DNA from: a virus
Lineage: Duplodnaviria; Heunggongvirae; Uroviricota; Caudoviricetes
IMG/VR virus record: IMGVR_UViG_2713896792_000001
Location: 1 to 36,662 of that record
Strand: one strand, 5' to 3'
Length of the DNA: 36,662 bases
In this document: positions 19,119 through 36,633 of the stretch, piece after piece
How positions within the stretch are numbered: position 1 is the first letter of the stretch
How the letters are laid out: each line of letters opens with the position of its first letter
The notes under the pieces: generated by a model
The model's database searches: none
What the model was told of the DNA's origin: nothing
Seen by the model: only the letters and a program-made list of their open reading frames with translations
Position numbers and translations under genes: made by a program

Positions 19119-19382
19119 ATGAGTAACTACCTAGAATTTAAGAAAAAAATTGGTGAATATGCAAATGTTACTCGGTGGGGTTTCCCCTGTACCGAGCGTG
19201 AAATCACTTTGATACAAAATGACATTAACTCCGCGCTTCAAAGTGGTAAAGTTATAAGTCGTAGCATGCTCCAAGGCATTATCAGCCGTCATGTTCCCAA
19301 TACCCAATTCTTAATCACTGAAAGTGTGGACAACTCTGATCTTAACACTGCATTAAGAATGCTGGCACCAAAACAAAAATGA
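19119..19382 (+). CDS. hypothetical protein (moron gene 1)
   Basis: 87-aa ORF, ATG at 19119 with AAGGAG 8 nt upstream; AT-rich by inspection; opposite strand to all flanking phage genes. Confidence 0.5.
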   Translation: MSNYLEFKKKIGEYANVTRWGFPCTEREITLIQNDINSALQSGKVISRSMLQGIISRHVPNTQFLITESVDNSDLNTALRMLAPKQK

Positions 19383-20122
19383 ATAATGATGAGTTTCAGA
19401 TCAGCCCCGACGAAGTAACGTCGGAGCTGACTTCTGCAAAGGAAAGATTTTTACGTGGTATTCAGCCATACGTGCGTAATGGCGGTATATCAAACCTTGC
19501 TGACCTACATGAAGTTCAGCAGCATGCTTCAAAATATTTTAATACCGCTGTTAAGTTAGTTCAAAAAGTAGATTTATGTAAACTGGATGACAATAAGACA
19601 TTCGCCATTTCGTTAGCTGGAGACTGTCGAGCAGTTCTGGAAACTTATTTAGAATACTACGACATGATGGTGGCAAACATTAAACACCTAAAAATTGATC
19701 CAGACAATATTGTATTGTATAGCAAAGATGGTCTATCAAACATTCAAAGAATCATTAAAAAGTACTCATCAAAAGATATTTACACCGCTATTATTGCGGA
19801 ATTTGAGTCTCGAAAATTGCCAATCGATGGATTTACTATAGGTACCCCAATGAATTGGAAATTAATTGTCACTGCTATTATTGGATTTTTAAGTTTTTGT
19901 ATTTTTTTATCAATTACACTGTTAATGCCAGACTTGAATGAGTTTCAAAAGAAAATGATTTCTTCTTTATATTTCATGAGTGCGGCCGTTGGAATATCAC
20001 CATTCATTGCAAATAATATAAAGGTCAATGGGAAGATGGTATTTCGTGGTTCGGAATTTAAAGTATCTGCTATTGGTGGTTTAGCAACATTGATTGTTTC
20101 TTTCATCATCCAAGTAATTTAG
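19379..20122 (+). CDS. hypothetical membrane protein (moron gene 2), soluble N-domain plus three C-terminal TM segments
   Basis: 247-aa ORF, start overlaps gene 1 stop (ATGA); hydrophobic segments WKLIVTAIIGFLSFCIFLSITLLM, SLYFMSAAVGISPFIANNI, VSAIGGLATLIVSFIIQVI. Confidence 0.55.
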   Translation: MNNDEFQISPDEVTSELTSAKERFLRGIQPYVRNGGISNLADLHEVQQHASKYFNTAVKLVQKVDLCKLDDNKTFAISLAGDCRAVLETYLEYYDMMVANIKHLKIDPDNIVLYSKDGLSNIQRIIKKYSSKDIYTAIIAEFESRKLPIDGFTIGTPMNWKLIVTAIIGFLSFCIFLSITLLMPDLNEFQKKMISSLYFMSAAVGISPFIANNIKVNGKMVFRGSEFKVSAIGGLATLIVSFIIQVI

Positions 20123-20148: not shown

Positions 20149-20490
20149 TCATAGCATTGATAGCACACCACTAACAAAACCTAATGCTGTTTGCATATCT
20201 TTTCTAATTGTCCCATCAGAACACTTACGCTTCTTCGCAATGGCGCGTAATGAAATACCAATAACAAAGTGGGCAATTATTAGCTCATATTCTTCTTGTT
20301 TATATTTACGTAACCGTGCGACACAACCGTCTATCACGATCCCTTCATCATCATCACACTGGAGACGTGTTTTTTTACCATGAGGTAAAAGCCCCTTGAA
20401 GCCTGCTGCTATCGGCTGCCAGTCCACACTACTGTTATCTGCTGCAGCCCATGCTCCCCAGCGGTCCAAAACTTCATACATGTCACGCAT
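20149..20490 (-). CDS. late antiterminator Q (QuuD / phage 82 Q-like)
   Basis: Start at Met7 of track ORF (MRDMYEVLDRWGAWAA...), preceded by GGAGAAAG; N-terminus and AAGFKGL motif match my recollection of E. coli QuuD; upstream of the lysis cassette. Confidence 0.7.
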   Translation of the reverse strand: MRDMYEVLDRWGAWAAADNSSVDWQPIAAGFKGLLPHGKKTRLQCDDDEGIVIDGCVARLRKYKQEEYELIIAHFVIGISLRAIAKKRKCSDGTIRKDMQTALGFVSGVLSML

Positions 20491-20507
20491 CAACTTTCTC
20501 CACAACA

Positions 20508-21503
20508 TCAGCCCAGTACGCCAGTTGCCAGCGCACGATCGATAAAACGAAATATCAGCTCCAGCTGAGAGCCATACTTCTCTTCAAATGCCACGGTATC
20601 CGCATGCAGTTCGTCGTGATGCTTTCTGCACAAAGGCAACACAAAGAGATCATGCGCTTTTGTACCCATTCCCCCCTGACCGTGGCCTATCAGGTGGTGA
20701 GGATCATCAGCAGGCTTTCCACAACATGCGCACGGCTGTGTCTTAACCCAGCGCGTGTACTTTTCATTAACCCAGCGGCGACGTTTTGGGCGTAACATAA
20801 AAGACTCCGGCGACTCCGGATCCACTTTCAGCGCCAGCACCTTTTTCGCCTTATCCTGGATGATGCTGGTGGCAGGAACCGAAGGCACAAGGTCACTTTC
20901 CCGGGTGACAGACGGCACAACAGGATTCGGTAATCTCAGTGCCTTACGGGCTGCGCTTTCCGGTAAGGCATCCGCCAGATCATTACGAACCAGCCACCAG
21001 CACAGTTCCGGCATTGTCACAACGTGACTGTCATCAAAACCGAGATCCCGACGCACAACAGACAACACCCAGCGGGCACAGTTATCCGTTGCCATTGATT
21101 CCAGCCGTTCCGTGAACTGATCGCGCAGCTGGTTATCGCAGTGCCAGCACAGACGGATTGCGCCCGGAGCGTGTCGCATTGTTGTCATGTTCTCGCTGTG
21201 CCAGTCGGAATGAGGCCACTGGCAGCCTTTTTCACGAAGTAACCAGCTTTCAAGACATTCCACGCCACCAGCACGACGGATCACTGCCTCATTGCGGAAC
21301 ACGGCCCGAACAGCAGGATCATCCGCCAGCGGTTGTGATGCCGCCGGAACGGCACCACTGGCAAAAGATGAATAACGTTCTGGCTCAGGCTCCAGCAGGA
21401 CACGCCCCTGCATAAACAGGGGCATCAGCTCTGAACCGGGTCTGAACAATACGATCCCCATACGCGGGGCAATTTCAGGGGTCAGTAATGCTCTCACGGT
21501 CAC
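20508..21503 (-). CDS. DUF968-like protein with C-terminal Cys/His nuclease-like motif
   Basis: 331-aa ORF (GTG start in track; first ATG is Met14); C-terminal PCACCGKPADDPHHLIGHG...CRKHHDELH motif resembles the YdfU/DUF968 family found in nin regions. Confidence 0.45.
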   Translation of the reverse strand: MTVRALLTPEIAPRMGIVLFRPGSELMPLFMQGRVLLEPEPERYSSFASGAVPAASQPLADDPAVRAVFRNEAVIRRAGGVECLESWLLREKGCQWPHSDWHSENMTTMRHAPGAIRLCWHCDNQLRDQFTERLESMATDNCARWVLSVVRRDLGFDDSHVVTMPELCWWLVRNDLADALPESAARKALRLPNPVVPSVTRESDLVPSVPATSIIQDKAKKVLALKVDPESPESFMLRPKRRRWVNEKYTRWVKTQPCACCGKPADDPHHLIGHGQGGMGTKAHDLFVLPLCRKHHDELHADTVAFEEKYGSQLELIFRFIDRALATGVLG

Positions 21504-21504
21504 C

Positions 21505-22302
21505 TCAATGAACGGTATCGAGCAGCTTTAACAGCTCAGGGAATCGGGATTCGAAGAAATGCGGCTGCGTCTCGCGCGGATTTGCGGGACTGGTGATGTT
21601 CTTGCCGAACATGCAGCCTTTCGCTGTCAGCGACCAGAATTTTTTGATGTTGTTAATCGCGGTACGGCTGTATCGTTCGCGTTGTTCAACGATCCCCAGC
21701 TTCGCCATCTGGTGATATGCCTGATTAGCCGTCAGGCAGATACCATACTGTTTCAGCAGTGCACTCAGTGACAGTGTCGGGCGACTTGAGCCATCAGGCG
21801 CGTCAGCAGGAGCATCAATGGCATAGCGCGGTGCCAGATTCGGTAAGCCAACAGCCTCCTGGAGTTTCTGACAGGCCCCAAGCACAGATGAGTTAGACAG
21901 GTTTAACTCCCGACGCATAAAGTCCAGCAGAATCACTCCAGCCTGCATCTTGTCAGCAGCCTGTCCGGATAATTTTTCCGGTGCGCTGGTTACCATGTCG
22001 AAAGTACGGATCACCTTCAGATGGAATGACGGGCTGATCCACATTGCATAGGCATACACCAATTCCTTACAGACATACGTCCCCTGATTATTTCCGCCGC
22101 GAATAACGTTAACTGGCTCTATATTGACCGAGTTGCAAATCTGCAACTCGCTTATTAAACGTTCAGTTTGCTCATTGCGGAGCCAGAATGCAGGCTTATG
22201 CTTATCCAGAGAACCGGCAGCCCTGTGCAGATCGTTCAGGCTGTAACGCCCATAAGCATCACGACGAACGTCAATACCATCAATGACCATCAGATTATTC
22301 AT
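21505..22302 (-). CDS. KilA-N domain protein
   Basis: Start at Met12 of track ORF with AGAGGAGAAA SD; N-terminal NLMVIDGIDVRRDAYGRYSLNDLHRAAG...FWLRNEQTERLISEL matches the KilA-N pattern. Confidence 0.55.
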   Translation of the reverse strand: MNNLMVIDGIDVRRDAYGRYSLNDLHRAAGSLDKHKPAFWLRNEQTERLISELQICNSVNIEPVNVIRGGNNQGTYVCKELVYAYAMWISPSFHLKVIRTFDMVTSAPEKLSGQAADKMQAGVILLDFMRRELNLSNSSVLGACQKLQEAVGLPNLAPRYAIDAPADAPDGSSRPTLSLSALLKQYGICLTANQAYHQMAKLGIVEQRERYSRTAINNIKKFWSLTAKGCMFGKNITSPANPRETQPHFFESRFPELLKLLDTVH

Positions 22303-22321
22303 ACTTCGTTTCTCCTCTTGA

Positions 22322-22711
22322 TCAGGCGGCTGCACCCGCCGTTTTCTCGTACTTACTGATAGTGATCTCGACCTTCCCTTCCGGGATAACCGGTCTCCAC
22401 TCCACCAGCATTCTTTTCACCTGACTGTCGTCTTCCCACACCCCCGCGTGGGTCAGGGCGTCAAACAGCGCCTTGTTATAGTTGTCCAGATCGCGGATCC
22501 GGTTATCCGGAGGAAACAACACGATCTCCACTGAAGCAGGTGCCGACGTTGGTTTCGGCAGACGATGTAACTGCTCAACTATTGCTGCACACGCCGCGCT
22601 CTGGAATTTTCGCCCCGCCTCGCTTATCAGGCTCTTACCTGCAAACGCCCCTTTGTTGGGGTGTCGCCAGTACGTGTTCACGCTGGGCGGAAAAGGCAGT
22701 ATTAGCTTCAT
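22322..22711 (-). CDS. rusA: RusA-family Holliday junction resolvase
   Basis: 129-aa ORF; N-terminal LILPFPPSVNTYWR and central RDLDNYNKALFDALTHAGVWEDD motifs match RusA; ATG overlaps upstream stop. Confidence 0.75.
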   Translation of the reverse strand: MKLILPFPPSVNTYWRHPNKGAFAGKSLISEAGRKFQSAACAAIVEQLHRLPKPTSAPASVEIVLFPPDNRIRDLDNYNKALFDALTHAGVWEDDSQVKRMLVEWRPVIPEGKVEITISKYEKTAGAAA

Positions 22712-23034
22712 ACTTTCAGCTCCCTCTCATGTAACCAGTGGGCTGCACGCAGCCTGGCGTTTTCCTCACCGGCAAGCAGTGCGCGGATAATCCCGACCGC
22801 CTCGCTGTCGTCGTCCTTCACCGCGGTATGAAGAGTGATACCCCGGGCCACGCCACGCTTTATCGTGATTACGCCTTTTTTCTCCAGTGCGCGAAGATGC
22901 TCCACCGCTGCATTCACTGAACGGTATCCCAGCATGGTTGCCACCTCCTGATTGGTTGGCGGGAAGCCACGTTCTTTCTGATAAGAAATCAGCATATCCA
23001 GCACCTGCTGCTGGCATTGAGTTAACGTCGTCAT
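22708..23034 (-). CDS. LexA N-terminal DNA-binding-domain protein lacking a peptidase domain
   Basis: Start at Met12 of track ORF; LTQCQQQVLDMLISYQKERGFPPTNQEVATMLGYRSVNAAVEHLRALEKKGVITIKRGVARGITL resembles the LexA winged-helix domain; only about 40 further residues, no Ser/Lys S24 domain. Confidence 0.5.
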   Translation of the reverse strand: MTTLTQCQQQVLDMLISYQKERGFPPTNQEVATMLGYRSVNAAVEHLRALEKKGVITIKRGVARGITLHTAVKDDDSEAVGIIRALLAGEENARLRAAHWLHERELKV

Positions 23035-23522
23035 TAAGCCCCCACGTAATTCCCTGACAGATACCACTCTTCACCCGATGCAGCGCGCTTGCTGCTTTTC
23101 CGTAAGCACCGCTCACGACGCGCCAGAAAATTGTTTCGTTCTGGCTGGGAGTGGCTTTCACGGAATGCCGCCATCCACACGGTTGCAGCACGACGGTATA
23201 AGCCCCTGGACTCCAGTTCTTCAGCCTGGCGGGTCAGGCACAAAATCACCTGGGGATCGTTAGTGCCGACATAGAAATTGCGCACAGGTCCGGTTTCACG
23301 AACTGGTTGTGGTTCCGGCTCCTGCGCTCTCTCAGTCAGGCGCGGGAAATGTCTGCGTGTATCACCTTCACAACGGTGAGCCACACGCCCACTCTGACGT
23401 AACTTGCTTGCTGACTGCAGAACGCGCTGCCGTGAGTAACCAGCAAAAGCATCTGCAATGTCTCCGGAAGTACACCCCGGATGGGCTTCAATGAATTTCT
23501 GAACGTCATTTAACAGACTCAT
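23034..23522 (-). CDS. PerC-like transcriptional regulator (candidate)
   Basis: Start at Met3 (ATG, SD GGGGGTGA); C-terminal AEELESRGLYRRAATVWMAAF...RRERCL resembles the PerC/Pch motif as I recall it. Confidence 0.4.
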   Translation of the reverse strand: MSLLNDVQKFIEAHPGCTSGDIADAFAGYSRQRVLQSASKLRQSGRVAHRCEGDTRRHFPRLTERAQEPEPQPVRETGPVRNFYVGTNDPQVILCLTRQAEELESRGLYRRAATVWMAAFRESHSQPERNNFLARRERCLRKSSKRAASGEEWYLSGNYVGA

Positions 23523-23524
23523 GA

Positions 23525-24466
23525 TCACCCCCTGAATCCTGCCGGGATCTGGCTGTAGTCCACGTTGTCGTAACTGGATTTGAAGTACGGGTCTTCGCGT
23601 TTTTCGGTGTACGTGCTGACGGACGGCGATAAGCGCAGGGAAAGCTCATCCCATTTTTCCCGCAGCTTCGACGGGCTGAGCACGTTACGGCACCAGAACG
23701 GATCGCGGCTGACGCGGCTGTACATCTCGCAGATTTGTTTGTGAGTACGACCATCCTGCACACACATCAGGCGAATTTCGTTTGCCCAGGCTGTCCAGTT
23801 CGGTTCTTTGGGACGAACCACCTCGCCGTCACATTCGGCAGCCTGCTCGTACAGGGCGATGATTTTTTTCCAGAGCCACTGTGCGCAGGTCAAATCATCC
23901 TGCGTCCCCCACTGGCGCTTTTTAGGGCTGAATACAACCGCATCAGGATGGCGAGTTAAAAAATCCTGTTCATCCGTCTGCGTGTCCGGTTGCGAAGCGT
24001 CCGGACGAGAAGTTTTTTTATCTGACGGATCATGTTTTGATTTTACTGACGGATCCCCGCCAGATTCTGACGGGTGAAAACCCGCTTTTTTGCCAGATTT
24101 CGACGCATCAAATTTTGACGGGTCAGATTTTGATGCGTCAGATTTTGACGGGTCAGAATCTGACAGTTGAGAAAATGCCGCTGCCTGAAGCTTCGCAACG
24201 TTAAGCTGATAAACATTCGACGCATTGCGGTTACCCTGGCGACGCGCCTTACGCGTTAACCAGCCTTCTGCTTCCAGCCGTGCGATAGCCGTTCTGACGG
24301 TACTCATCCCCGCGCCAATCTGGCGGGCAATGGTTTCAATTGATGGCCAGCACACACCTTCGTCATTACTGAAATCAGCCAGGCGGGCCATAATTGCCAC
24401 GCTGGATAATTTCATGCCTGATGCAGCGCAACCATCCCATACATAGCCGGTTAATTTAGTGCTCAT
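23525..24466 (-). CDS. phage replication initiation protein (O-like, N-terminal wHTH)
   Basis: 313-aa ORF; N-terminal helix-turn-helix-like region, low-complexity Asp/Ser/Lys linker encoded by the iteron array, distinct C-terminal domain. Confidence 0.6.
   Translation of the reverse strand: MSTKLTGYVWDGCAASGMKLSSVAIMARLADFSNDEGVCWPSIETIARQIGAGMSTVRTAIARLEAEGWLTRKARRQGNRNASNVYQLNVAKLQAAAFSQLSDSDPSKSDASKSDPSKFDASKSGKKAGFHPSESGGDPSVKSKHDPSDKKTSRPDASQPDTQTDEQDFLTRHPDAVVFSPKKRQWGTQDDLTCAQWLWKKIIALYEQAAECDGEVVRPKEPNWTAWANEIRLMCVQDGRTHKQICEMYSRVSRDPFWCRNVLSPSKLREKWDELSLRLSPSVSTYTEKREDPYFKSSYDNVDYSQIPAGFRG
24020..24166. repeat. iteron array (candidate origin of replication) inside the initiator gene
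   Basis: Tandem approx 15-bp repeats CAGATTTTGACGGGT / CAGATTTTGATGCGT / CAAATTTTGACGGGT / CAGATTTCGACGCAT / CAGATTCTGACGGGT plus TCTGACGG half-sites. Confidence 0.55.
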
Positions 24467-24475
24467 GACCGACCT

Positions 24476-24814
24476 CTATTTCCCTGAATTTACGACGAAA
24501 CTGTTCGAGCGGGCTGAAGCACTCATGCTCATAGCCTTCGCGGAGGTAGATAACCCGTTGTGTTTCCGGCTCCCAACGAATGACTCTGACGGGCACTCCG
24601 TAGTGATCTTTGAACCAGCGGTTAACTTGTCGCAAAGGACTGTCTCCTTCTGCCGGTTGAAATCACCCACAGCCCACTCTGCAAAGCTGTGGGTTACAAT
24701 TTCCCTGTCACCTGGTACATTTACTGCATAGCAATACTCCACCTTCGCTTTTCCACCCGGTACAGGAAGCGCAATCAGTTGCGAGCGACGGTAGTGTGTT
24801 GTTAAACTGTTCAT
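24476..24814 (-). CDS. hypothetical protein (frame uncertain; see findings)
   Basis: 112-aa ORF whose ATG overlaps the CII-like stop (ATGA); its C-terminal half is low-complexity, while an alternative frame (24456-24635, TTG start, AAGGAG SD) encodes a more protein-like 59-aa sequence. Confidence 0.3.
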
Positions 24815-25407
24815 GCGTTAGTTTCTCCACAGTCACGACACGCCACGGCGCCCGGAGCTGCACACTCGCGGGCGTCATTACTTTCTGAAATGCAAAAAAT
24901 TTTGTAGACCAGTGCTGCATGCTCCTGCAGCTTCGAAATTGAGAGGTACAGCTCGTCGTTAATTGCTGTCTTCTCATGCGGTTCCACTACACCGTCTTCA
25001 ATTGCTGAACGAATCTGTTTTGAATAACTGCCGATCTGTTCAATGACTTCCAGCAGGCGCTGGTTAATATCGGCGTTGTCCACATCCTCGACGTCAGGAA
25101 GAGACACAAAGACGCCATTTGCAGACTGCGCCACAGCGTCAGCAATGAAGTGAGTTCCACCAGCACGTTGCAAAATCATTGCCCATCCCAGCGGGAAAAT
25201 CTGATCGCCATCGGCACGAAGGCGGTTAAATAATGCGTTCTCTGTTACATCCAGCCAGTCAGCTGCTTCAGCGTAACCACCCGGCAACTTTGCGATAGTT
25301 TTTCTGACAGCTTTCACGTACCACTCAGGCTGTTTTTCTACTTTCCAGTGATGCTTACCCACGGTTAGCCTCATCGTTCTGTGGTTTCTGTTAATCGATT
25401 TATCCAT
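24811..25407 (-). CDS. CII-like regulatory protein (CP76/YdaT-like, candidate)
   Basis: Track ORF starts at GTG 25476 inside cro; first plausible ATG (Met24, 25407) overlaps cro stop (ATGGATAA); position immediately downstream of cro. Confidence 0.4.
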
Positions 25408-25600
25408 TAGATTTTTCATAAAGCTCAGGTTTAAATGGCAACCGTCCGCAAGTTCTATATGCAGCTTCTGCTGCACGTCCTTTTGGAATTAACTGGCCCG
25501 GACGGTTTCGCCACTGATAAACGGCTTCAGTTGTTATGCCGAAAAAAGCAGCAACTTTCTCAATACTGCCGAAGTAGCTTTCGATATCGTCAGTTGTCAT
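25400..25600 (-). CDS. Cro-like HTH repressor (YdaS family-like)
   Basis: 66-aa ORF divergent from cI, SD GGAGGG; HTH-like segment IEKVAAFFGITTEAVYQWRNR. Confidence 0.6.
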   Translation of the reverse strand: MTTDDIESYFGSIEKVAAFFGITTEAVYQWRNRPGQLIPKGRAAEAAYRTCGRLPFKPELYEKSNG

Positions 25601-25697: not shown

Positions 25698-26324
25698 ATG
25701 GAAACGGTTGGTCAGCGTATAAAAGCTCTGAGAAGAGTTACCAGAACGTCCCAGAAAGAATTGGGTAAATTTTGTGGAGTAAGCGACGTTGCTGTGGGGT
25801 ACTGGGAGAAAGACATCAATACCCCTGGTGGGGAGGCACTTTCGAAATTAGCGAAGTTCTTCAATACGTCAATAGATTACATTCTTTATGGTGCTGAGTT
25901 TGAAGGCAAACTCGTCACAAACATGCGCAGAGTTCCTGTAATATCGTGGGTTCAGGCTGGGCAGTTTACTGAGTGCAGGGCAGCAGAAGTGTTTAGTGAA
26001 GTGGACAAGTGGGTAGATACATCATTAAAGATTGGTGATAACTCATTTGCATTAGAGGTTAAAGGTGACTCCATGACTAACCCTAATGGCCTCCCAACAA
26101 TACCAGAAGGCGCAACAGTGATTGTAGATCCAGATGCAGAACCTCGTCATGGAAAAATAGTCATCGCTCGACTTGATGGAACAAACGAAGCTACAGTAAA
26201 AAAATTAGTCATCGATGGCCCTCAAAAGTTTTTAGTGCCATTAAATCCTCGGTATCCCAACATCCCTATCAATGGTAATTGCCTTATCATTGGTGTAGTC
26301 AAAGGAGTTCAATACGAACTCTAA
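25698..26324 (+). CDS. CI-type prophage repressor (HTH_XRE + S24 LexA-like peptidase)
   Basis: 208 aa; N-terminal HTH (QKELGKFCGVSDVAVGYWE), C-terminal S24 motifs EVKGDSMTNP (Ser) and ATVKKLV (Lys). Confidence 0.85.
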   Translation: METVGQRIKALRRVTRTSQKELGKFCGVSDVAVGYWEKDINTPGGEALSKLAKFFNTSIDYILYGAEFEGKLVTNMRRVPVISWVQAGQFTECRAAEVFSEVDKWVDTSLKIGDNSFALEVKGDSMTNPNGLPTIPEGATVIVDPDAEPRHGKIVIARLDGTNEATVKKLVIDGPQKFLVPLNPRYPNIPINGNCLIIGVVKGVQYEL

Positions 26325-26571: not shown

Positions 26572-26778
26572 ATGCACAAAACAGAACCCAAAATCGTCGC
26601 GCCTGGCTACACAGATGAGGAAATTTATGAGTGGATGACAAAGAAGCTGGCAGCTATAAACCAGCTTCGTGAAGTGCTGTCTTATCGACAGGAAACAATA
26701 GACTCCTTAAAAAAACTGGATCAGGAAATCACGGTTTTATCACAGGATGTTACTTTAGATATTGTGCAGACAAATTAG
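26572..26778 (+). CDS. small hypothetical protein (first early-left ORF)
   Basis: 68 aa from ATG 26572 with GAGGAG SD 7 nt upstream; not Arg-rich, so not an obvious N homolog. Confidence 0.35.
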   Translation: MHKTEPKIVAPGYTDEEIYEWMTKKLAAINQLREVLSYRQETIDSLKKLDQEITVLSQDVTLDIVQTN

Positions 26779-27184
26779 GATCCCATTCATTTTCGTCAAA
26801 ATCATCAAAGTGATGAATTTGTGATCTCCAGTCTCGATAATCTAAAAATTTCTGGGCGGTTACGCTTATTTTATCAAGTGTGAGTTCATCCTGAATTGAA
26901 AGAAGAAGTTCATCAAATTTCATCTCATTAATCTGTTTTGGCATCCAGTGATGCTTCATCAGAATAAGGTGAACCAGAGCCTTTTTCCCATTCAACTGAT
27001 TATAGGGAGTGCCGAATTTCTTCCGGTGCTCATGTAAGACAAGGTCCAAAAGAGTAAGTAATGTTGCCCTTGATTCAACTTTGCTTATTTCGACTGATGA
27101 CACTACCCCACTGATTTCAATGCCCCGATACTTTCCAACATTTTCACAGTGGGATTTGTACAGCGTATAGATATTACCGGACAT
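26750..27184 (-). CDS. hypothetical protein (immunity-region orphan, 144 aa)
   Basis: ATG at 27184 with AAAGGAAAAG upstream; AT-rich by inspection; convergent with and overlapping the 3' end of 26572-26778; no TM segments. Confidence 0.5.
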   Translation of the reverse strand: MSGNIYTLYKSHCENVGKYRGIEISGVVSSVEISKVESRATLLTLLDLVLHEHRKKFGTPYNQLNGKKALVHLILMKHHWMPKQINEMKFDELLLSIQDELTLDKISVTAQKFLDYRDWRSQIHHFDDFDENEWDPNLSAQYLK

Positions 27185-30193: not shown

Positions 30194-30400
30194 ATGCTGA
30201 ACCTCGATTGCGTTCCTATCTCAACTTATTGCAAAGAAACTGGCGAAACTCCTGAAGCAATAAACAAACGTGTACAGCGCGGTGTTTGGCGTGAAGGTGT
30301 TCAGGTTTTAAAGGTTGAAGGCGTTAAGGAGAGGTGGATTGATCTTAGTGAGGTTGCAAAATGGGCCAGACAAAATTGCTCAAACTACCGCGCGGCGTAA
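30194..30400 (+). CDS. excisionase (Xis-like)
   Basis: 68 aa from Met5 of track ORF (SD GGAGAA); winged-helix-like pattern and position immediately upstream of and overlapping int. Confidence 0.5.
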   Translation: MLNLDCVPISTYCKETGETPEAINKRVQRGVWREGVQVLKVEGVKERWIDLSEVAKWARQNCSNYRAA

Positions 30401-31557
30401 CAATCAGAAAACACCGTCAGGGAGAAACGATCAATATAACTTTCACCTACAAAGGAGTTAAATGTCGTGAGCCACTTTCCAATCTGGAAGTAACACCAAA
30501 GAACATTAAATACGCCGAGCGCACACTCGGCGAAATTCATAATAAGATCGAAAGGGGAACATTCATTTATGCGGAATATTTTCCCCGTTCTGCTCGTTTG
30601 AAAATTTTTGGTAATGCTGCTGCAGGCAAAACGGTAAAAATGTACCTGGACGAATACCTTGAAATCTGCGAAACGAGAAAACTTTCACCATCTACGATTG
30701 GTGGTTATAAAAAATGCCGTAGTGCGTTAGCCTCACTCCACATTTGCCCTGCAAGTGAATTAACACCAGCAATCCTGAAAGCGTGGATTCAAAGCCAGAA
30801 AACGACCTTAAAAACAATTCGCAACCAGTTATCTTTCCTGCGGTCAGCACTTGATGAAGCCGTAACCGATGGGGTACTTCAAATTAACCCCGTATCGTTG
30901 GTAACTGCTTCGCGCTACCAAAGTGATAAGTCAGAAGCAGAAAGCAGCTACGTGGTTGATCCGCTATCACCAACAGAAGTTGATGCATTACTAGCAGCAG
31001 CCGGAAACAAACAATGGGAGAATCTGTTCCGGTTCGCTATACATACAGGCCTGCGTAGTTCTGAATTATGTGCCCTTCGATGGCGTGATATCGACTTTGT
31101 TGGAAAAACTGCCCATGTCCAGAGCGCAAGTGTTGTCGGTGTTATCAAAGGGACAAAGACAAAAGCAGGTACTCGTAAAGTTGAACTGACAGAAGAGGCA
31201 ATGTTGGCGCTGATAAATCAGAAGCCATTTACATTCATGAAGGATGCTACTGTCTTTGAAGACCCAAAGACCAATAAGCCTTGGGCAAGTGCTGATGCAA
31301 TCAGGAAAAAAGCATGGGTGCCAACATTACGGAAAGCAGGTATTCGATACAGAAATCCATATCAAACTAGGCATACATTCGCCACCAGCCATATCAGCCG
31401 AGGAGCAAATCTGTTTTGGCTTGCAGCTCAAATGGGGCATAAAGGGCCGGAAATGCTTTTCAGGCATTATGGTTCGTATCTCGTAGACTATGATGGCAAG
31501 ACAGCTTGTAAGGACCAAGTATCAAAAAATCCGGAGAACATGAAAATTGAGAAGTAA
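30361..31557 (+). CDS. tyrosine integrase (lambda-type, with arm-binding N-domain)
   Basis: 398-aa ORF; C-terminal catalytic region RHTFATSHISRGANLFWLAAQMGHKGPEMLFRHYGSY (R, H-x-x-R, Y); overlaps xis 3' end. Confidence 0.8.
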   Translation: MGQTKLLKLPRGVTIRKHRQGETINITFTYKGVKCREPLSNLEVTPKNIKYAERTLGEIHNKIERGTFIYAEYFPRSARLKIFGNAAAGKTVKMYLDEYLEICETRKLSPSTIGGYKKCRSALASLHICPASELTPAILKAWIQSQKTTLKTIRNQLSFLRSALDEAVTDGVLQINPVSLVTASRYQSDKSEAESSYVVDPLSPTEVDALLAAAGNKQWENLFRFAIHTGLRSSELCALRWRDIDFVGKTAHVQSASVVGVIKGTKTKAGTRKVELTEEAMLALINQKPFTFMKDATVFEDPKTNKPWASADAIRKKAWVPTLRKAGIRYRNPYQTRHTFATSHISRGANLFWLAAQMGHKGPEMLFRHYGSYLVDYDGKTACKDQVSKNPENMKIEK

Positions 31558-31747: not shown

Positions 31748-33013
31748 ATGTTGATTGAGTTTACAGTACAAAACTATAAATCTATTTCAGAGAAACAAAC
31801 ACTGAGTTTAGTTGCATCAAAACTTAACGATTTGCCTAATAATCTGTTCAGTATTGATGAACCTAAATCTCTTGAATTGCTTAAAAGTGCTGTGATTTAT
31901 GGCCCTAATGCTGCCGGAAAATCAAACATTATTAACGCTATTACAACTATGGCTGAACTTATTGTCCGGTCTGCTACAGGTTATAAAAGTGGTGATAAAC
32001 TTGATATCACGCCTTTTAGACTAGACTCAAAGAAGATTAATCAACCATCTGAATTTGAAATTAACTTTATTTCCGAAGGCATCAGATACCAGTATGGTTT
32101 TTCTGCAACAGAAGATTTTATTCACGACGAATGGTTATTTGCATTCCCCAAAGGCAGACCACAAAAATGGTTTTTACGTCTATGGGATGAAGAAAAACAA
32201 ACCCATGAATGGGAGTTGGGGCCATCGTTGACAGGAGAAAAACAAACATGGTTGAAATCAACCAGGCCTAATGCGCTCTTTCTTTCTACAGCGGTACAAT
32301 TAAACAGTGTACAACTAAAACCTGTATACGATTGGTTTTATTACAAAGTTAAATTTACTGAATTAACAGGTTGGGATAGTGATTACAGTGCAAAGCAATG
32401 CTTAAATGATAAGAAAGATGAGATTCTCAATTTTTTAAAAGCTGCCGATGTAGGTATTGATGACATTCATGTAACAAAAGAAAAATTCAATCCCAATGCT
32501 CTTCCTGATGATATGCCTGCAGCCATCAAGGAACTAGTGATTAAGAATATGCAAGGCAAGGAAGAATATGTCATTAAAACACTTCATAATAATGAGGATG
32601 GAGAGCCAATTCCATTCGATTTAAAAGATGAATCGCATGGAACTAGAAAAATCTTTAGTTTCGCGGGTCCCTTATCACATTCACTCGAGACAGGAAACAT
32701 CCTGTTTATTGATGAATTAAATGATAACTTACACCCCAAATTAGTTGAGTTTATTGTAGGTTTATTTCACGATAAAAATATCAATAAGAATGGTGCCCAG
32801 TTAATCTTTACAACTCATGAGACGTCTATTTTAAATCAAGATGTTTTCAGACGAGATCAGATTTGGTTTGTAGAAAAAGACAATTCAAAGCAAACAAATC
32901 TTTTCCCACTTACGGATTTTAGTCCAAGAAAAGGAAGGGAGAATTTAGAAGCTTCTTATCTTGACGGTAGATATGGGGCTTTACCACTCATTGGGAAATG
33001 GGAGAGATATTAA
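31748..33013 (+). CDS. AAA_21/ABC-type ATPase, AbiLi-like
   Basis: 421 aa; Walker A GPNAAGKSN, Walker B ILFIDELNDN, H-loop FTTHE; AT-rich gene; SD AAGGG. Confidence 0.7.
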   Translation: MLIEFTVQNYKSISEKQTLSLVASKLNDLPNNLFSIDEPKSLELLKSAVIYGPNAAGKSNIINAITTMAELIVRSATGYKSGDKLDITPFRLDSKKINQPSEFEINFISEGIRYQYGFSATEDFIHDEWLFAFPKGRPQKWFLRLWDEEKQTHEWELGPSLTGEKQTWLKSTRPNALFLSTAVQLNSVQLKPVYDWFYYKVKFTELTGWDSDYSAKQCLNDKKDEILNFLKAADVGIDDIHVTKEKFNPNALPDDMPAAIKELVIKNMQGKEEYVIKTLHNNEDGEPIPFDLKDESHGTRKIFSFAGPLSHSLETGNILFIDELNDNLHPKLVEFIVGLFHDKNINKNGAQLIFTTHETSILNQDVFRRDQIWFVEKDNSKQTNLFPLTDFSPRKGRENLEASYLDGRYGALPLIGKWERY

Positions 33014-33699
33014 TGGGAAGCGAAGATCTGTTCAAAAAAAGAAAGGCTCGGCGTAATAATGAATTCAAACGAGTTAGTAAAGCACGAGCTCAAATGAAGA
33101 AAATTCTTATCGTCTGTGAGGGAGAGAAGACTGAGCCCGCATATTTTACAGATTTTATAAAACATTGCCGTATAAGCACGGCAAGCATAGTTGAGATTTC
33201 TGGAGAGTGCGGCTCAAGCCCTATGAATGTGGTATCTTGGGCAAAAGAAAAATATAATACGGAAAAAAAAAGGAGCGACCCTTATGATAAGGTTTATTGT
33301 GTCTTTGATAGAGACGCTCACCCTAACTATGATGAAGCTCTTAGCAGGATTAATTCCTTAAATCCAAAAGGGATTTTTGTTGCTATAACTTCCATACCAT
33401 GTTTCGAGTACTGGCTGATACTACATTTTGGATACACCCGAAAATCATTTTCACCTCAGAAAGGCAAAAGTGAAGGCGCACAAATGCTAGCTGAGTTAAA
33501 AAAATACATGCCAGATTATGAGAAAAAGGCATCAGGTGTATTTAATAAATTGCAAGATCGGCTCGATACGGCATTAATCAATGCTAAAAGAGTCGAAGAT
33601 GCCGCCAAAAAAGACGGTTCGATAAATCCTTCAACTAAAGTTGGCGCTTTGATTACAGATCTAATTAACATTCGTGATGACTTTGAAAATGAGAAGTAA
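33013..33699 (+). CDS. RloB-like (TOPRIM-like) protein, AbiLii-like
   Basis: Start at Met6 of track ORF (TAATG overlap, SD GGGAGAG); N-terminal ILIVCEGEKTEPAYF motif characteristic of RloB-family proteins (recollection). Confidence 0.6.
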   Translation: MGSEDLFKKRKARRNNEFKRVSKARAQMKKILIVCEGEKTEPAYFTDFIKHCRISTASIVEISGECGSSPMNVVSWAKEKYNTEKKRSDPYDKVYCVFDRDAHPNYDEALSRINSLNPKGIFVAITSIPCFEYWLILHFGYTRKSFSPQKGKSEGAQMLAELKKYMPDYEKKASGVFNKLQDRLDTALINAKRVEDAAKKDGSINPSTKVGALITDLINIRDDFENEK

Positions 33700-34060: not shown

Positions 34061-35302
34061 ATGGCAAGACAAACCAAACCTCTATCCGTTAAAGAAATAG
34101 AATCAGCCAAACCCAAGGAGGCGGACTACGTTCTCTATGATGGCGATGGCCTTGAGCTACTCATTAAATCCAGCGGGAGTAAAATCTGGCAGTTTCGCTA
34201 CATTCGCCCTGTCACCAAGAAACGAGCAAAGAAGAGCATAGGCTCCTACCCGTCAGTTACCCTTGCCGATGCCAGAAACTACCGTGCAGAGTCCCGCTCA
34301 CTACTGGCTAAACAGATCGATCCGCAGGAACATCAGCAAGAACAATTGCGCAGTTCGCTGGAAGCCAAAACCAACACTTTCCAACTCGTAGCTGAACGTT
34401 GGTGGAATGTGAAGAAAGCCAGTGTGACAGAGGACTATGCGGAAGATATCTGGCGCTCTCTTGAAAGAGACGTCTTTCCTGCGATTGGCGACGTTAGCGT
34501 TACAGATATTAAAGCTCATACACTGGTTCAGGCCGTACAACCGGTTCAGGCCAGAGGAGCACTGGAAACTGTTCGTCGCCTGTGCCAACGTATTAATGAG
34601 GTCATGATCTATGCCCAGAACACAGGGCTGATTGATGCTGTTCCCAGCGTTAATATCGGTAAAGCCTTCGAGAAGCCTCAGAAAAAGAACATGCCCAGCA
34701 TTCGACCGGATCAGCTACCTCAGTTAATGCAGACGATGCGAACAGCCAGCATTAGCCTTTCCACACGCTGCCTGTTCATGTGGCAACTTCTTACTATTAC
34801 CCGCCCTGCCGAAGCGGCTGAAGCTCTCTGGGAAGAGGTAGACATAGAAGCGCGAGAGTGGAAGATTCCTGCAGCACGCATGAAAATGAACCGCGACCAT
34901 ACTGTTCCATTGTCAGATGAAGCAATTGCGATACTAGAGATGATGAAGCCGTTAAGTGGAAATCGAGAATTTATCTTTCCCAGCCGCATCAAGCCAAACC
35001 AGCCGATGAACAGTCAGACCGTAAACGCATCGCTAAAACGCGCAGGTTTTGGTGGGGTGCTCGTTTCACACGGCCTGCGATCTATCGCCAGTACAGCCCT
35101 TAATGAGCAGGGATTTCCACCTGATGTTATTGAGGCTGCACTTGCTCATGTGGATAAGAATGAGGTTCGTCGTGCGTATAACCGTAGTGATTATCTTGAG
35201 CAGCGACGGCCTATGATGCAGTGGTGGGCTGATTTTGTGATGGCTGCAGATCACGGTAGTATGATTGAAGGAGGGATAAAGGCAATGCGGTTAGTTGGAT
35301 GA
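34061..35302 (+). CDS. intA: P4-family tyrosine integrase, CP4-57 IntA-like
   Basis: 413-aa ORF directly downstream of the ssrA 3' end, as intA is in E. coli K-12; N-terminus MARQTKPL..YDGDGLELLIKSSGSK.WQFRY and C-terminus VSHGLRSIASTALNEQGFPPDVIEAALAH match IntA as recalled. Confidence 0.8.
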   Translation: MARQTKPLSVKEIESAKPKEADYVLYDGDGLELLIKSSGSKIWQFRYIRPVTKKRAKKSIGSYPSVTLADARNYRAESRSLLAKQIDPQEHQQEQLRSSLEAKTNTFQLVAERWWNVKKASVTEDYAEDIWRSLERDVFPAIGDVSVTDIKAHTLVQAVQPVQARGALETVRRLCQRINEVMIYAQNTGLIDAVPSVNIGKAFEKPQKKNMPSIRPDQLPQLMQTMRTASISLSTRCLFMWQLLTITRPAEAAEALWEEVDIEAREWKIPAARMKMNRDHTVPLSDEAIAILEMMKPLSGNREFIFPSRIKPNQPMNSQTVNASLKRAGFGGVLVSHGLRSIASTALNEQGFPPDVIEAALAHVDKNEVRRAYNRSDYLEQRRPMMQWWADFVMAADHGSMIEGGIKAMRLVG

Positions 35303-35799: not shown

Positions 35800-36633
35800 G
35801 TGATGTTGATGTGTGATGCGACCGGTCTGTCGCAACGTCGTGCCTGCAGGCTTACAGGTTTATCCCTGTCGACCTGCCGCTATGAGGCTCACCGTCCGGC
35901 TGCTGATGCGCATTTATCAGGGCGCATCACTGAGCTGGCACTGGAGCGCAGGCGTTTTGGCTACCGTCGTATTTGGCAGTTGCTGCGCCGTGAAGGGCTT
36001 CATGTTAATCATAAGCGCGTGTACCGGCTTTATCACCTCAGTGGCCTGGGCGTAAAACGCAGAAGACGTCGTAAAGGGCTGGCAACAGAACGTCTGCCGC
36101 TGCTCCGTCCGGCGGCGCCCAATCTGACCTGGTCGATGGATTTCGTCATGGACGCACTTTCCACCGGTCGCAGGATCAAGTGTCTTACCTGCGTCGATGA
36201 TTTCACAAAGGAATGCCTGACGGTCACTGTTGCCTTTGGGATTTCAGGCGTTCAGGTCACGCGTATTCTGGACAGCATTGCACTGTTTCGAGGCTATCCG
36301 GCGACGATAAGAACTGACCAGGGGCCGGAGTTCACTTGCCGTGCACTGGATCAATGGGCCTTTGAGCATGGTGTTGAGTTGCGCTTAATCCAGCCGGGCA
36401 AGCCAACGCAGAACGGATTTATTGAGAGCTTTAACGGACGATTTCGCGATGAATGTTTGAATGAGCACTGGTTCAGCGATATCGTTCATGCCAGGAAAAT
36501 TATTAATGACTGGCGGCAGGATTATAACGAATGCCGCCCGCACTCCACGCTGAATTATCAGACACCGTCTGAATTTGCAGCGGGCTGGAGAAAGGGTCAT
36601 TCTGAGAATGAAGATTCCGACGTTACTAACTGA
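35800..36633 (+). CDS. IS3-family transposase OrfB (DDE/rve catalytic domain)
   Basis: 277 aa in the -1 frame relative to orfA; that frame is open from 35740, so an OrfAB fusion by -1 frameshifting is possible; DDE-type motifs ([23 protein letters not shown]). Confidence 0.8.

Follow-up and report, generated by a model that had tools for sequence, protein, structure and literature searches.

We analysed a 36,662-nucleotide stretch of DNA (IMG/VR record IMGVR_UViG_2713896792_000001, positions 1 to 36,662; hereafter the window), which is a lambdoid prophage with its early-right (PR) operon on the minus strand, and two neighbouring genes of that operon, one encoding a 108-aa LexA-like protein and the other the 162-aa PerC-family protein YfdN. 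The best explanation of the two genes as a whole, which we hold with a confidence just short of even, is that they belong to an SfV/SfII/mEp460-type lambdoid prophage as conserved nin-region (delayed-early) genes and share transcription from PR with the genes for replication and recombination. The most economical reading of the LexA-like protein is that of a RecA-insensitive, sequence-specific DNA binder, and our best guess for YfdN, made by analogy, is a DNA-targeted, Pch-like anti-silencer or activator. RefSeq, GenBank phage records and PHROGs already list these genes with their position and the names of their domains, and the finding is a pointer to an unstudied and extremely common pair of prophage regulators. 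We document here the domain identities, architecture, conservation, synteny and prevalence of the pair, and from these we infer a mode of dimerisation, DNA targets and a physiological role.

A LexA DNA-binding domain without the autopeptidase domain

Both open reading frames (ORFs) reported in a first-pass annotation of this DNA were confirmed (Table 1), the 108-aa one with an ATG start, and both were found on the minus strand, which that annotation had left unstated. It had described the 108-aa protein as a LexA-type winged-helix N-domain that would be non-cleavable for want of an S24 autopeptidase, and both parts of this description were borne out. The protein matched the Pfam family LexA_DNA_bind (PF01726) over the full model (positions 1-65 of 65) with an E-value of 2.9e-19 and a score of 69 bits against a cut-off of 23.7, aligned with the E. 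coli LexA chains of the PDB at an E-value of about 1e-15 and matched phrog_362 ('transcriptional repressor') at 6.8e-59. Its score with the NCBIfam lexA equivalog TIGR00498 was 70.6 bits, under the cut-off of 110.95. Foldseek, run on the N-domain of the AlphaFold2 (AF2) model, returned the LexA N-domain (1lea, 3jso) as best match, with a root-mean-square deviation (rmsd) of 1.0-1.2 Å and 51% identity. No Peptidase_S24 match was found with Pfam in the protein, which ends at residue 108, so that no self-cleavage is possible. When E. coli LexA was compared with the whole window by tblastn, only LexA residues 1-86 aligned at the locus and no remnant of the C-terminal domain was found nearby. A frameshifted full-length LexA or cI was rejected, since there is no S24 remnant and the RusA gene overlaps the stop codon.

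Comparison with E. coli LexA (1lea, 3jso) showed that the two proteins share the N-terminal winged helix, with 50% identity over residues 1-70, whereas the LexA-like protein has neither the S24 peptidase/dimerisation domain, nor the Ser119/Lys156 dyad, nor a conserved Ala-Gly site, and has a two-helix hairpin where LexA has its C-terminal domain. The AF2 model had a mean predicted local distance difference test score (pLDDT) of 79.6, with a low-confidence linker at residues 69-74 between the winged helix and the hairpin. The hairpin motif, I-x-R-x-L-L ... A-R-x-x-A-x-x-W/F-L, is kept in homologues down to 37-47% identity (those of phage mEp390 and of a Klebsiella phage) and the hairpin is therefore a functional element; as modelled in the place of the S24 domain, it is a candidate for dimerisation or for the binding of a partner. 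The pair A88-G89 of the LexA-like protein aligns with the LexA cleavage pair A84-G85, in a segment predicted by AF2 to be helical. Homologues have A-N, A-K, V-G or T-G at this position, and a vestigial cleavage site was rejected because the pair is not conserved among them.

The DNA-contact residues of LexA in helix III are Ser39, Asn41, Ala42, Glu44 and Glu45 (PMC3091678). At positions 39, 41, 42, 44 and 45, where E. coli LexA has S, N, A, E and E, the protein of the window has S, N, A, V and E, keeping four of the five contacts, and the mEp390 homologue, which is 47% identical to it, has S, N, A, A and E. The corresponding residues are S, N, T, A and G in the Citrobacter homologue and S, K, A, L and L in that of the Klebsiella phage. 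Helix 3 of the LexA-like protein is 69% identical to that of LexA, as against 44% across the remainder of the domain. In proposing that SOS boxes could be occupied by the protein, the first-pass annotation made a plausible suggestion, because four of the five contact residues are kept.

A winged helix joined to a PerC domain in YfdN

The PerC/Pch-like C-terminus that had been noticed in the 162-aa protein was upheld by Pfam, which matched PerC (PF06069) to residues 98-149 with an E-value of 7.7e-09 and 36.1 bits against a cut-off of 22.6, and by the 40% identity, over 52 aa, of its PerC domain to PchE of E. coli O157 Sakai; the motif on which the first-pass annotation relied falls within the Pfam match. 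The protein matched phrog_1324 ('transcriptional activator') at an E-value of 1.4e-78 and its gene is 95.9% identical in nucleotide sequence to yfdN of the CPS-53 prophage of E. coli K-12. Residues 96-142 bore a weak resemblance only to the NCBIfam model NF033650 (ANR_neg_reg, an AraC negative regulator), with 23.6 bits and thus under the cut-off of 32.

The AF2 model of YfdN predicted two folded domains (Table 1), an N-terminal winged helix-turn-helix (wHTH) and a three-helix PerC-like domain, separated by a disordered and variable Pro/Glu-rich linker (residues 63-84) and followed by a disordered tail that carries the conserved motif WYLSGNYVG. In Foldseek the N-domain resembled wHTH domains of the ArsR/MarR/Fur type, with an rmsd of about 2 Å over about 60 residues, and had no PDB match at E<=0.001. 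A profile search with YfdN in 1.84 billion representative proteins returned no more than 160 clusters with E<=0.001. Among these, a count by eye gave about 25 (clustered at 50% identity) that were two-domain proteins of 140-165 aa, and the short matches, of 55-100 aa, covered the PerC part only; YfdN thus belongs to a distinct wHTH-plus-PerC subfamily of a small family. The PerC domain is common to YfdN and PchE, and through it YfdN is likened to PerC of enteropathogenic E. coli and to PchA-E of enterohaemorrhagic E. coli. PchE, which is the sole Pch protein that we compared, differs from YfdN in being a single domain of 90 aa, where YfdN has 162 aa with a wHTH, a linker and a tail, and in its genomic context, the untypable prophage Sp7. 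The identification of YfdN as PchE was rejected on account of these two differences.

Prevalence, synteny and selection

Of 5426 complete E. coli genomes, 2745 gave megablast matches to the 2.4-kb stretch from the RusA gene to the O-like gene. When genes were counted at a coverage of at least 80% in these genomes, the LexA-like gene was present in 2223 (41%), almost all at 95-99% nucleotide identity, and yfdN in 2547 (47%), mostly at 95-99%, each with up to four copies per genome; both genes are 100% identical in nucleotide sequence in E. coli YF-1. The pair was also found in isolated phages, namely SfII, SfIV, SfV, mEp460, cdtI (with a truncated yfdN), 2H10, Ayreon, Stx2c-converting phages and others. 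RefSeq names the first protein 'LexA family transcriptional regulator' or 'lexA DNA-binding domain protein' and the second 'yfdN: PerC family transcriptional regulator', and in the GenBank record of SfII they are SfII_44 ('LexA DNA binding domain protein') and SfII_42 ('PerC transcriptional activator family protein'). The two proteins are 94-98% identical to those of SfII and 95.4-95.7% identical to those of SfV (orf42 and orf40), and the genes hold the same operon position in both phages. The view that the two regulators are unusual cargo was not supported, as they belong to a standard syntenic block of a very common family of lambdoid prophages, are carried by these shares of E. coli genomes and by named phages, and are already annotated under these family names.

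A Citrobacter freundii prophage, in which the LexA-like protein has only 65% identity to that of the window, retains the block O-like, YfdN, (dam), LexA-like, RusA, KilA-N, DUF968, Q, and a Salmonella salamae prophage retains it as well; SfII has the same order. The two genes abut in the window but are separated by a dam methyltransferase gene in SfII, in SfV and in most prophages of E. coli. In the Salmonella phage ST64B, YfdN is followed by a methyltransferase and RusA and there is no LexA-like gene, while phage mEp390 has its 47%-identical LexA-like gene directly after the initiator gene and no YfdN. The Klebsiella phage ST846-OXA48phi9.1 has a 37%-identical LexA-like gene near dinI and DUF968. 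These four arrangements indicate that the adjacency of the two genes in the window is a mosaic variant and not a functional pairing. The LexA-like gene had a ratio of nonsynonymous to synonymous substitution rates of 0.07-0.14 and yfdN one of 0.17-0.23, with 0.07-0.13 for RusA, which shows purifying selection on both genes of the pair.

The hairpin-bearing homologue of the Klebsiella phage lies two genes downstream of dinI, and DinI is a modulator of the RecA/SOS pathway.

Layout of the PR operon

The placing of the two genes in the nin region of the delayed-early operon was a fair description, as they lie between the O-like initiator gene and Q (Table 1). The nin genes are tightly packed, with stops overlapping starts and almost no regulatory DNA left between them: the stop of yfdN and the start of the LexA-like gene share base 23034 (TAATG), and the stop of the latter overlaps the start of RusA (ATGA, 22708-22711). 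The minus strand from 22.7 to 24.5 kb yielded no promoter-like site, and such sites were overall as numerous as expected by chance; internal promoters that would express both genes in the lysogen were accordingly rejected.

Table 1. Genes and predicted protein domains of the PR region, with their positions in the window
Feature	Positions	Strand	Evidence or remark
cI repressor, S24-type	25698-26324	+	divergent from PR operon
cro-like gene	25400-25600	-	PR operon
cII (Phage_CP76)	24811-25476	-	PR operon
112-aa ORF	24476-24814	-	phrog_1170 E=1.7e-70; annotated in SfII
DUF4222, 59-aa TTG-start ORF	24456-24635	-	Pfam DUF4222 E=8.6e-19; annotated by RefSeq
O-like replication initiator, HTH_36 wHTH	23525-24466	-	Pfam HTH_36; phrog_391 'replication initiation O-like' E=1.3e-135
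yfdN-like gene, 162-aa PerC-family protein	23034-23522	-	Pfam PerC; phrog_1324
YfdN N-terminal wHTH, residues 1-60	23343-23522	-	AF2 helices 3-13, 19-25, 31-44, hairpin 47-60; pLDDT 82-92
YfdN PerC-like three-helix domain, residues 90-148	23079-23255	-	AF2 helices 90-105, 109-122, 126-148; pLDDT 88-94
LexA-like gene, 108-aa protein	22708-23034	-	Pfam LexA_DNA_bind; phrog_362
LexA-like winged HTH, three helices and beta wing, residues 1-68	22831-23034	-	AF2 helices 6-22, 28-35, 40-52, strands 56-58, 66-68; pLDDT about 80-86
LexA-like C-terminal two-helix hairpin, residues 74-103	22726-22815	-	AF2 helices 74-87, 93-103; pLDDT 86-88
RusA Holliday-junction resolvase	22322-22711	-	Pfam RusA E=5.2e-15
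KilA-N protein	21505-22335	-	Pfam KilA-N
DUF968/HNH protein	20508-21503	-	Pfam DUF968
Antiterminator Q	20149-20508	-	Pfam Phage_antitermQ

Search for targets of the LexA-like protein in the window

A position weight matrix was derived from 19 SOS boxes of E. coli. Its best score in the window was 12.6 against a mean shuffle maximum of 12.1 +/- 2.4, no site scoring above chance, and the window held no exact match to CTGT-N8-ACAG; SOS boxes in the phage were rejected as targets on these two results. When one mismatch was allowed, 20 matches to CTGT-N8-ACAG were found in the window against 11.8 +/- 3.2 expected, and those within the annotated prophage region (17-31.6 kb) were in coding sequence, none of them with an AT-rich, SOS-like spacer. 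Palindromes of CTGT and ACAG with spacers of 0-14 showed no enrichment, since about eight were expected in the whole window and four were present, and none of the short inverted repeats between 18.8 and 27.4 kb was operator-like for the LexA-like protein.

In the regulatory half a single palindrome of this kind was present, CTGT-N7-ACAG at 26677-26691, within a small plus-strand ORF downstream of cI (26573-26778; about 68 aa from the ATG at 26573, with a GAGGAG ribosome-binding site), which converges on a minus-strand ORF of 144 aa and unknown function (26750-27184; phrog_5286).

Proposed role of the LexA-like protein

Host SOS boxes are the likeliest targets of the LexA-like protein, because most of its LexA reading head is preserved and no SOS-type site was found in the phage. 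The protein would bind CTGT-type palindromes, with the hairpin supplying dimerisation in place of the C-terminal domain of LexA. As it cannot cleave itself, RecA* cannot inactivate it by that route, and an induced phage would re-impose repression on the SOS genes while the LexA of the host is being destroyed. The genes silenced would include those for SOS toxins, sulA, colicins and the LexA-controlled antirepressors of rival prophages. That host SOS boxes are the targets, and that an induced phage can in this way repress the SOS genes anew, we regard as possible if tentative; the fuller proposal of a natural RecA-proof LexA, which would dimerise through its hairpin on host SOS boxes after prophage induction and shut the SOS regulon again, is rather doubtful. 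If the protein is a non-cleavable binder of SOS boxes, more than 40% of complete E. coli genomes would carry a phage-encoded brake on the SOS response during induction, and such a brake would bear on the induction of Shiga toxin (Stx) phages and of the toxin, on antibiotic-triggered SOS mutagenesis and on the rivalry between co-resident prophages.

The LexA DNA-binding domain joined to a heterologous dimerisation element, such as the Jun zipper in LexA(1-87)-Jun, is a functional, non-cleavable repressor at SOS operators. Fusions of this kind, engineered from LexA(1-87) and a leucine zipper and employed in bacterial two-hybrid work, resemble the LexA-like protein in joining a LexA DNA-binding domain to a helical dimerisation element and in their insensitivity to RecA; they differ in being artificial constructs, where dimerisation through a natural hairpin is what we would propose for the LexA-like protein. 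Several points weigh against the action of the latter at SOS boxes. The LexA N-domain alone binds DNA weakly, and the geometry of the hairpin could set a half-site spacing unlike that of LexA. Glu44 of LexA is replaced in all members of the family, and the changed reading heads of the Citrobacter and Klebsiella homologues are unexpected if the conserved job of the family is to bind the invariant enterobacterial SOS box. In addition, our literature searches found no functional study of an enterobacterial phage LexA-like protein or of YfdN. The last such point is the behaviour of gp6 of GIL01, a tectivirus of Bacillus thuringiensis, which, being a DNA-binding phage regulator that consists of a LexA N-domain only, is a precedent for such a protein, yet which recognises a distinct palindrome of its own and activates the phage late promoter P3 (PMC6182141).

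This truncated LexA homologue also sets the precedent for the main rival explanation, which we consider fairly unlikely: the LexA-like protein would be a transcription factor directed at the phage, would have an operator of its own and would serve a phage promoter (for morons, the KilA-N gene or late timing, for example) rather than the SOS genes of the host. Like gp6, it is a phage-encoded LexA N-domain without the cleavage domain and would be expressed early in the lytic cycle, to judge by its operon position; unlike gp6, which as described ends with the wing and has no hairpin and whose phage type and host are unrelated, it keeps a recognition helix of the gammaproteobacterial LexA type. 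The variation of the reading heads among homologues would fit phage sites that co-evolve with the protein, and the LexA-like gene always accompanies the same RusA/KilA-N/DUF968/Q block. However, the intergenic DNA of the window has no CTGT-type or other convincing palindrome on which such a factor could act, the overlapping nin genes leave it almost no regulatory DNA, the late genes are already served by the Q antiterminator, and the E. coli-type and mEp390-type proteins keep the LexA contacts at an overall identity of only 47%.

Proposed role of YfdN

Pch proteins act by relieving the silencing exerted by H-NS, StpA and Hha (PMC4764244), and overexpression of PchE represses csgD and raises flagellar expression (PMC6265319, PMC7369912). 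[quoted passage not shown] The modest PerC match of YfdN (36 bits) weighs against this role, as does the observation that the divergent proteins PchD and PchE barely activate ler or have no effect on it (PMC5931665). Mentions of yfdN in the literature were incidental only: an overexpression screen for glycogen, a 12.6-fold induction in strain CFT073 under nitric oxide stress, and its deletion from a reporter strain.

That YfdN is a Pch-type virulence regulator which switches on the LEE through ler, as the first-pass annotation had suggested, is highly improbable. PchA, PchB and PchC do activate ler, and yfdN had been deleted as a precaution from the ler reporter strain of that study, so that cross-talk is considered possible in the field, this deletion being the only part played by yfdN in the work (PMC5931665); the PerC domain, moreover, is over the Pfam threshold and has the identity to PchE given above. 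The weak influence of PchD and PchE upon ler argues against this role too, and YfdN has an extra wHTH domain that is absent from Pch proteins. Its gene is present in nearly half of the complete E. coli genomes, K-12 included, as well as in Shigella phages, Salmonella ST64B and Citrobacter freundii prophages. To our knowledge, E. coli K-12 and the hosts of the Shigella phages, of ST64B and of the Citrobacter freundii prophages have no LEE, and its control therefore cannot be the general role of YfdN. A further explanation, which we judge improbable, would make one or both proteins accessory factors of replication or recombination, with YfdN as the positional analogue of lambda P and the LexA-like wHTH acting with RusA and DUF968 on DNA structures. 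YfdN always comes directly after the initiator gene, even when the initiator is of a different type (sb42 of ST64B), and no gene for a loader of the P, DnaC or DnaB type was found in the operon with Pfam; the LexA-like gene is translationally coupled to RusA, and some of the 'O-like' PHROG families weakly match its wHTH (phrog_678, E=0.0087). Against this, the LexA-like domain is nearest to true LexA and not to the initiators, mEp390 replicates without YfdN, and YfdN has no likeness to helicase loaders, its sole family match being PerC. The DnaT-like tail of the initiators, described below, points to a recruitment of the host primosome that is independent of a loader, so that no analogue of P is needed. 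YfdN as the analogue of lambda P was rejected, as neither sequence nor fold supports it.

The C-terminal tail and internal repeats of the O-like initiator

The last 24 codons of the O-like gene (23525-23596, minus strand) encode the C-terminus REDPYFKSSYDNVDYSQIPAGFRG. This tail is common to otherwise dissimilar initiators, those of ST64B (87.5% identity over 24 aa), of mEp390 (71%) and of Citrobacter and Salmonella prophages. Its last nine residues, SQIPAGFRG, are identical at eight of nine positions to the extreme C-terminus of E. coli DnaT, SQIPPGFRG, and this resemblance suggests that the tail is a peptide for direct recruitment of the host primosome. The lack of a gene for a loader of the P or DnaC type would then be explained, because the tail may recruit the primosome of the host. 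Homology of the window with Stx2a phages covers about 75 bp at the 3' end of the initiator gene, and the shared tail may explain this stretch. A 15-bp tandem repeat (CAGATTTTGACGGGT; 4.3 copies, 81% matches) was found inside the O-like gene at 24094-24157, where it encodes a repeated DPSKSDASKS peptide; these repeats are probably the iterons of the replication origin.

Other features of the window

Between cII and the initiator gene (24456-24814, minus strand), the 112-aa ORF and the DUF4222 ORF overlap in different frames, and Citrobacter prophages have at this place the DUF4222 gene alone and a gap of 164 bp. Between Q and the lysis genes, a plus-strand ORF of 247 aa (19379-20122) matched only phrog_5814 (unknown function) and had no Pfam or PADLOC match; it holds a moron-like position, where SfII has two other plus-strand genes. 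The 5' part of the KilA-N gene contains an inverted repeat (22111-22168) with arms of 27 nucleotides that are 70% complementary and a loop of four nucleotides.

Terminator-like hairpins were about 2.6 times commoner between 19000 and 26500 than in shuffled sequences (19 against 7.2 +/- 3.4). Twelve of the 19 lie antisense to the PR operon, on the plus strand, and include one in the LexA-like gene (22739-22756) and one in yfdN (23080-23095). This excess could stem from base composition or from selection acting against antisense transcription.

An anti-phage defence pair of the AbiL type was found on the plus strand at 31748-33699, consisting of AbiLi (PADLOC E=4e-101; Pfam AAA_21) and AbiLii (RloB; E=3e-29). 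The pair is situated a short way outside the integrase gene of the prophage (30361-31557) and is followed by a P4-type integrase gene (34061-35302) and an IS3-family transposase gene (35800-36633), and the region looks like a defence islet beside the attachment site of the prophage.

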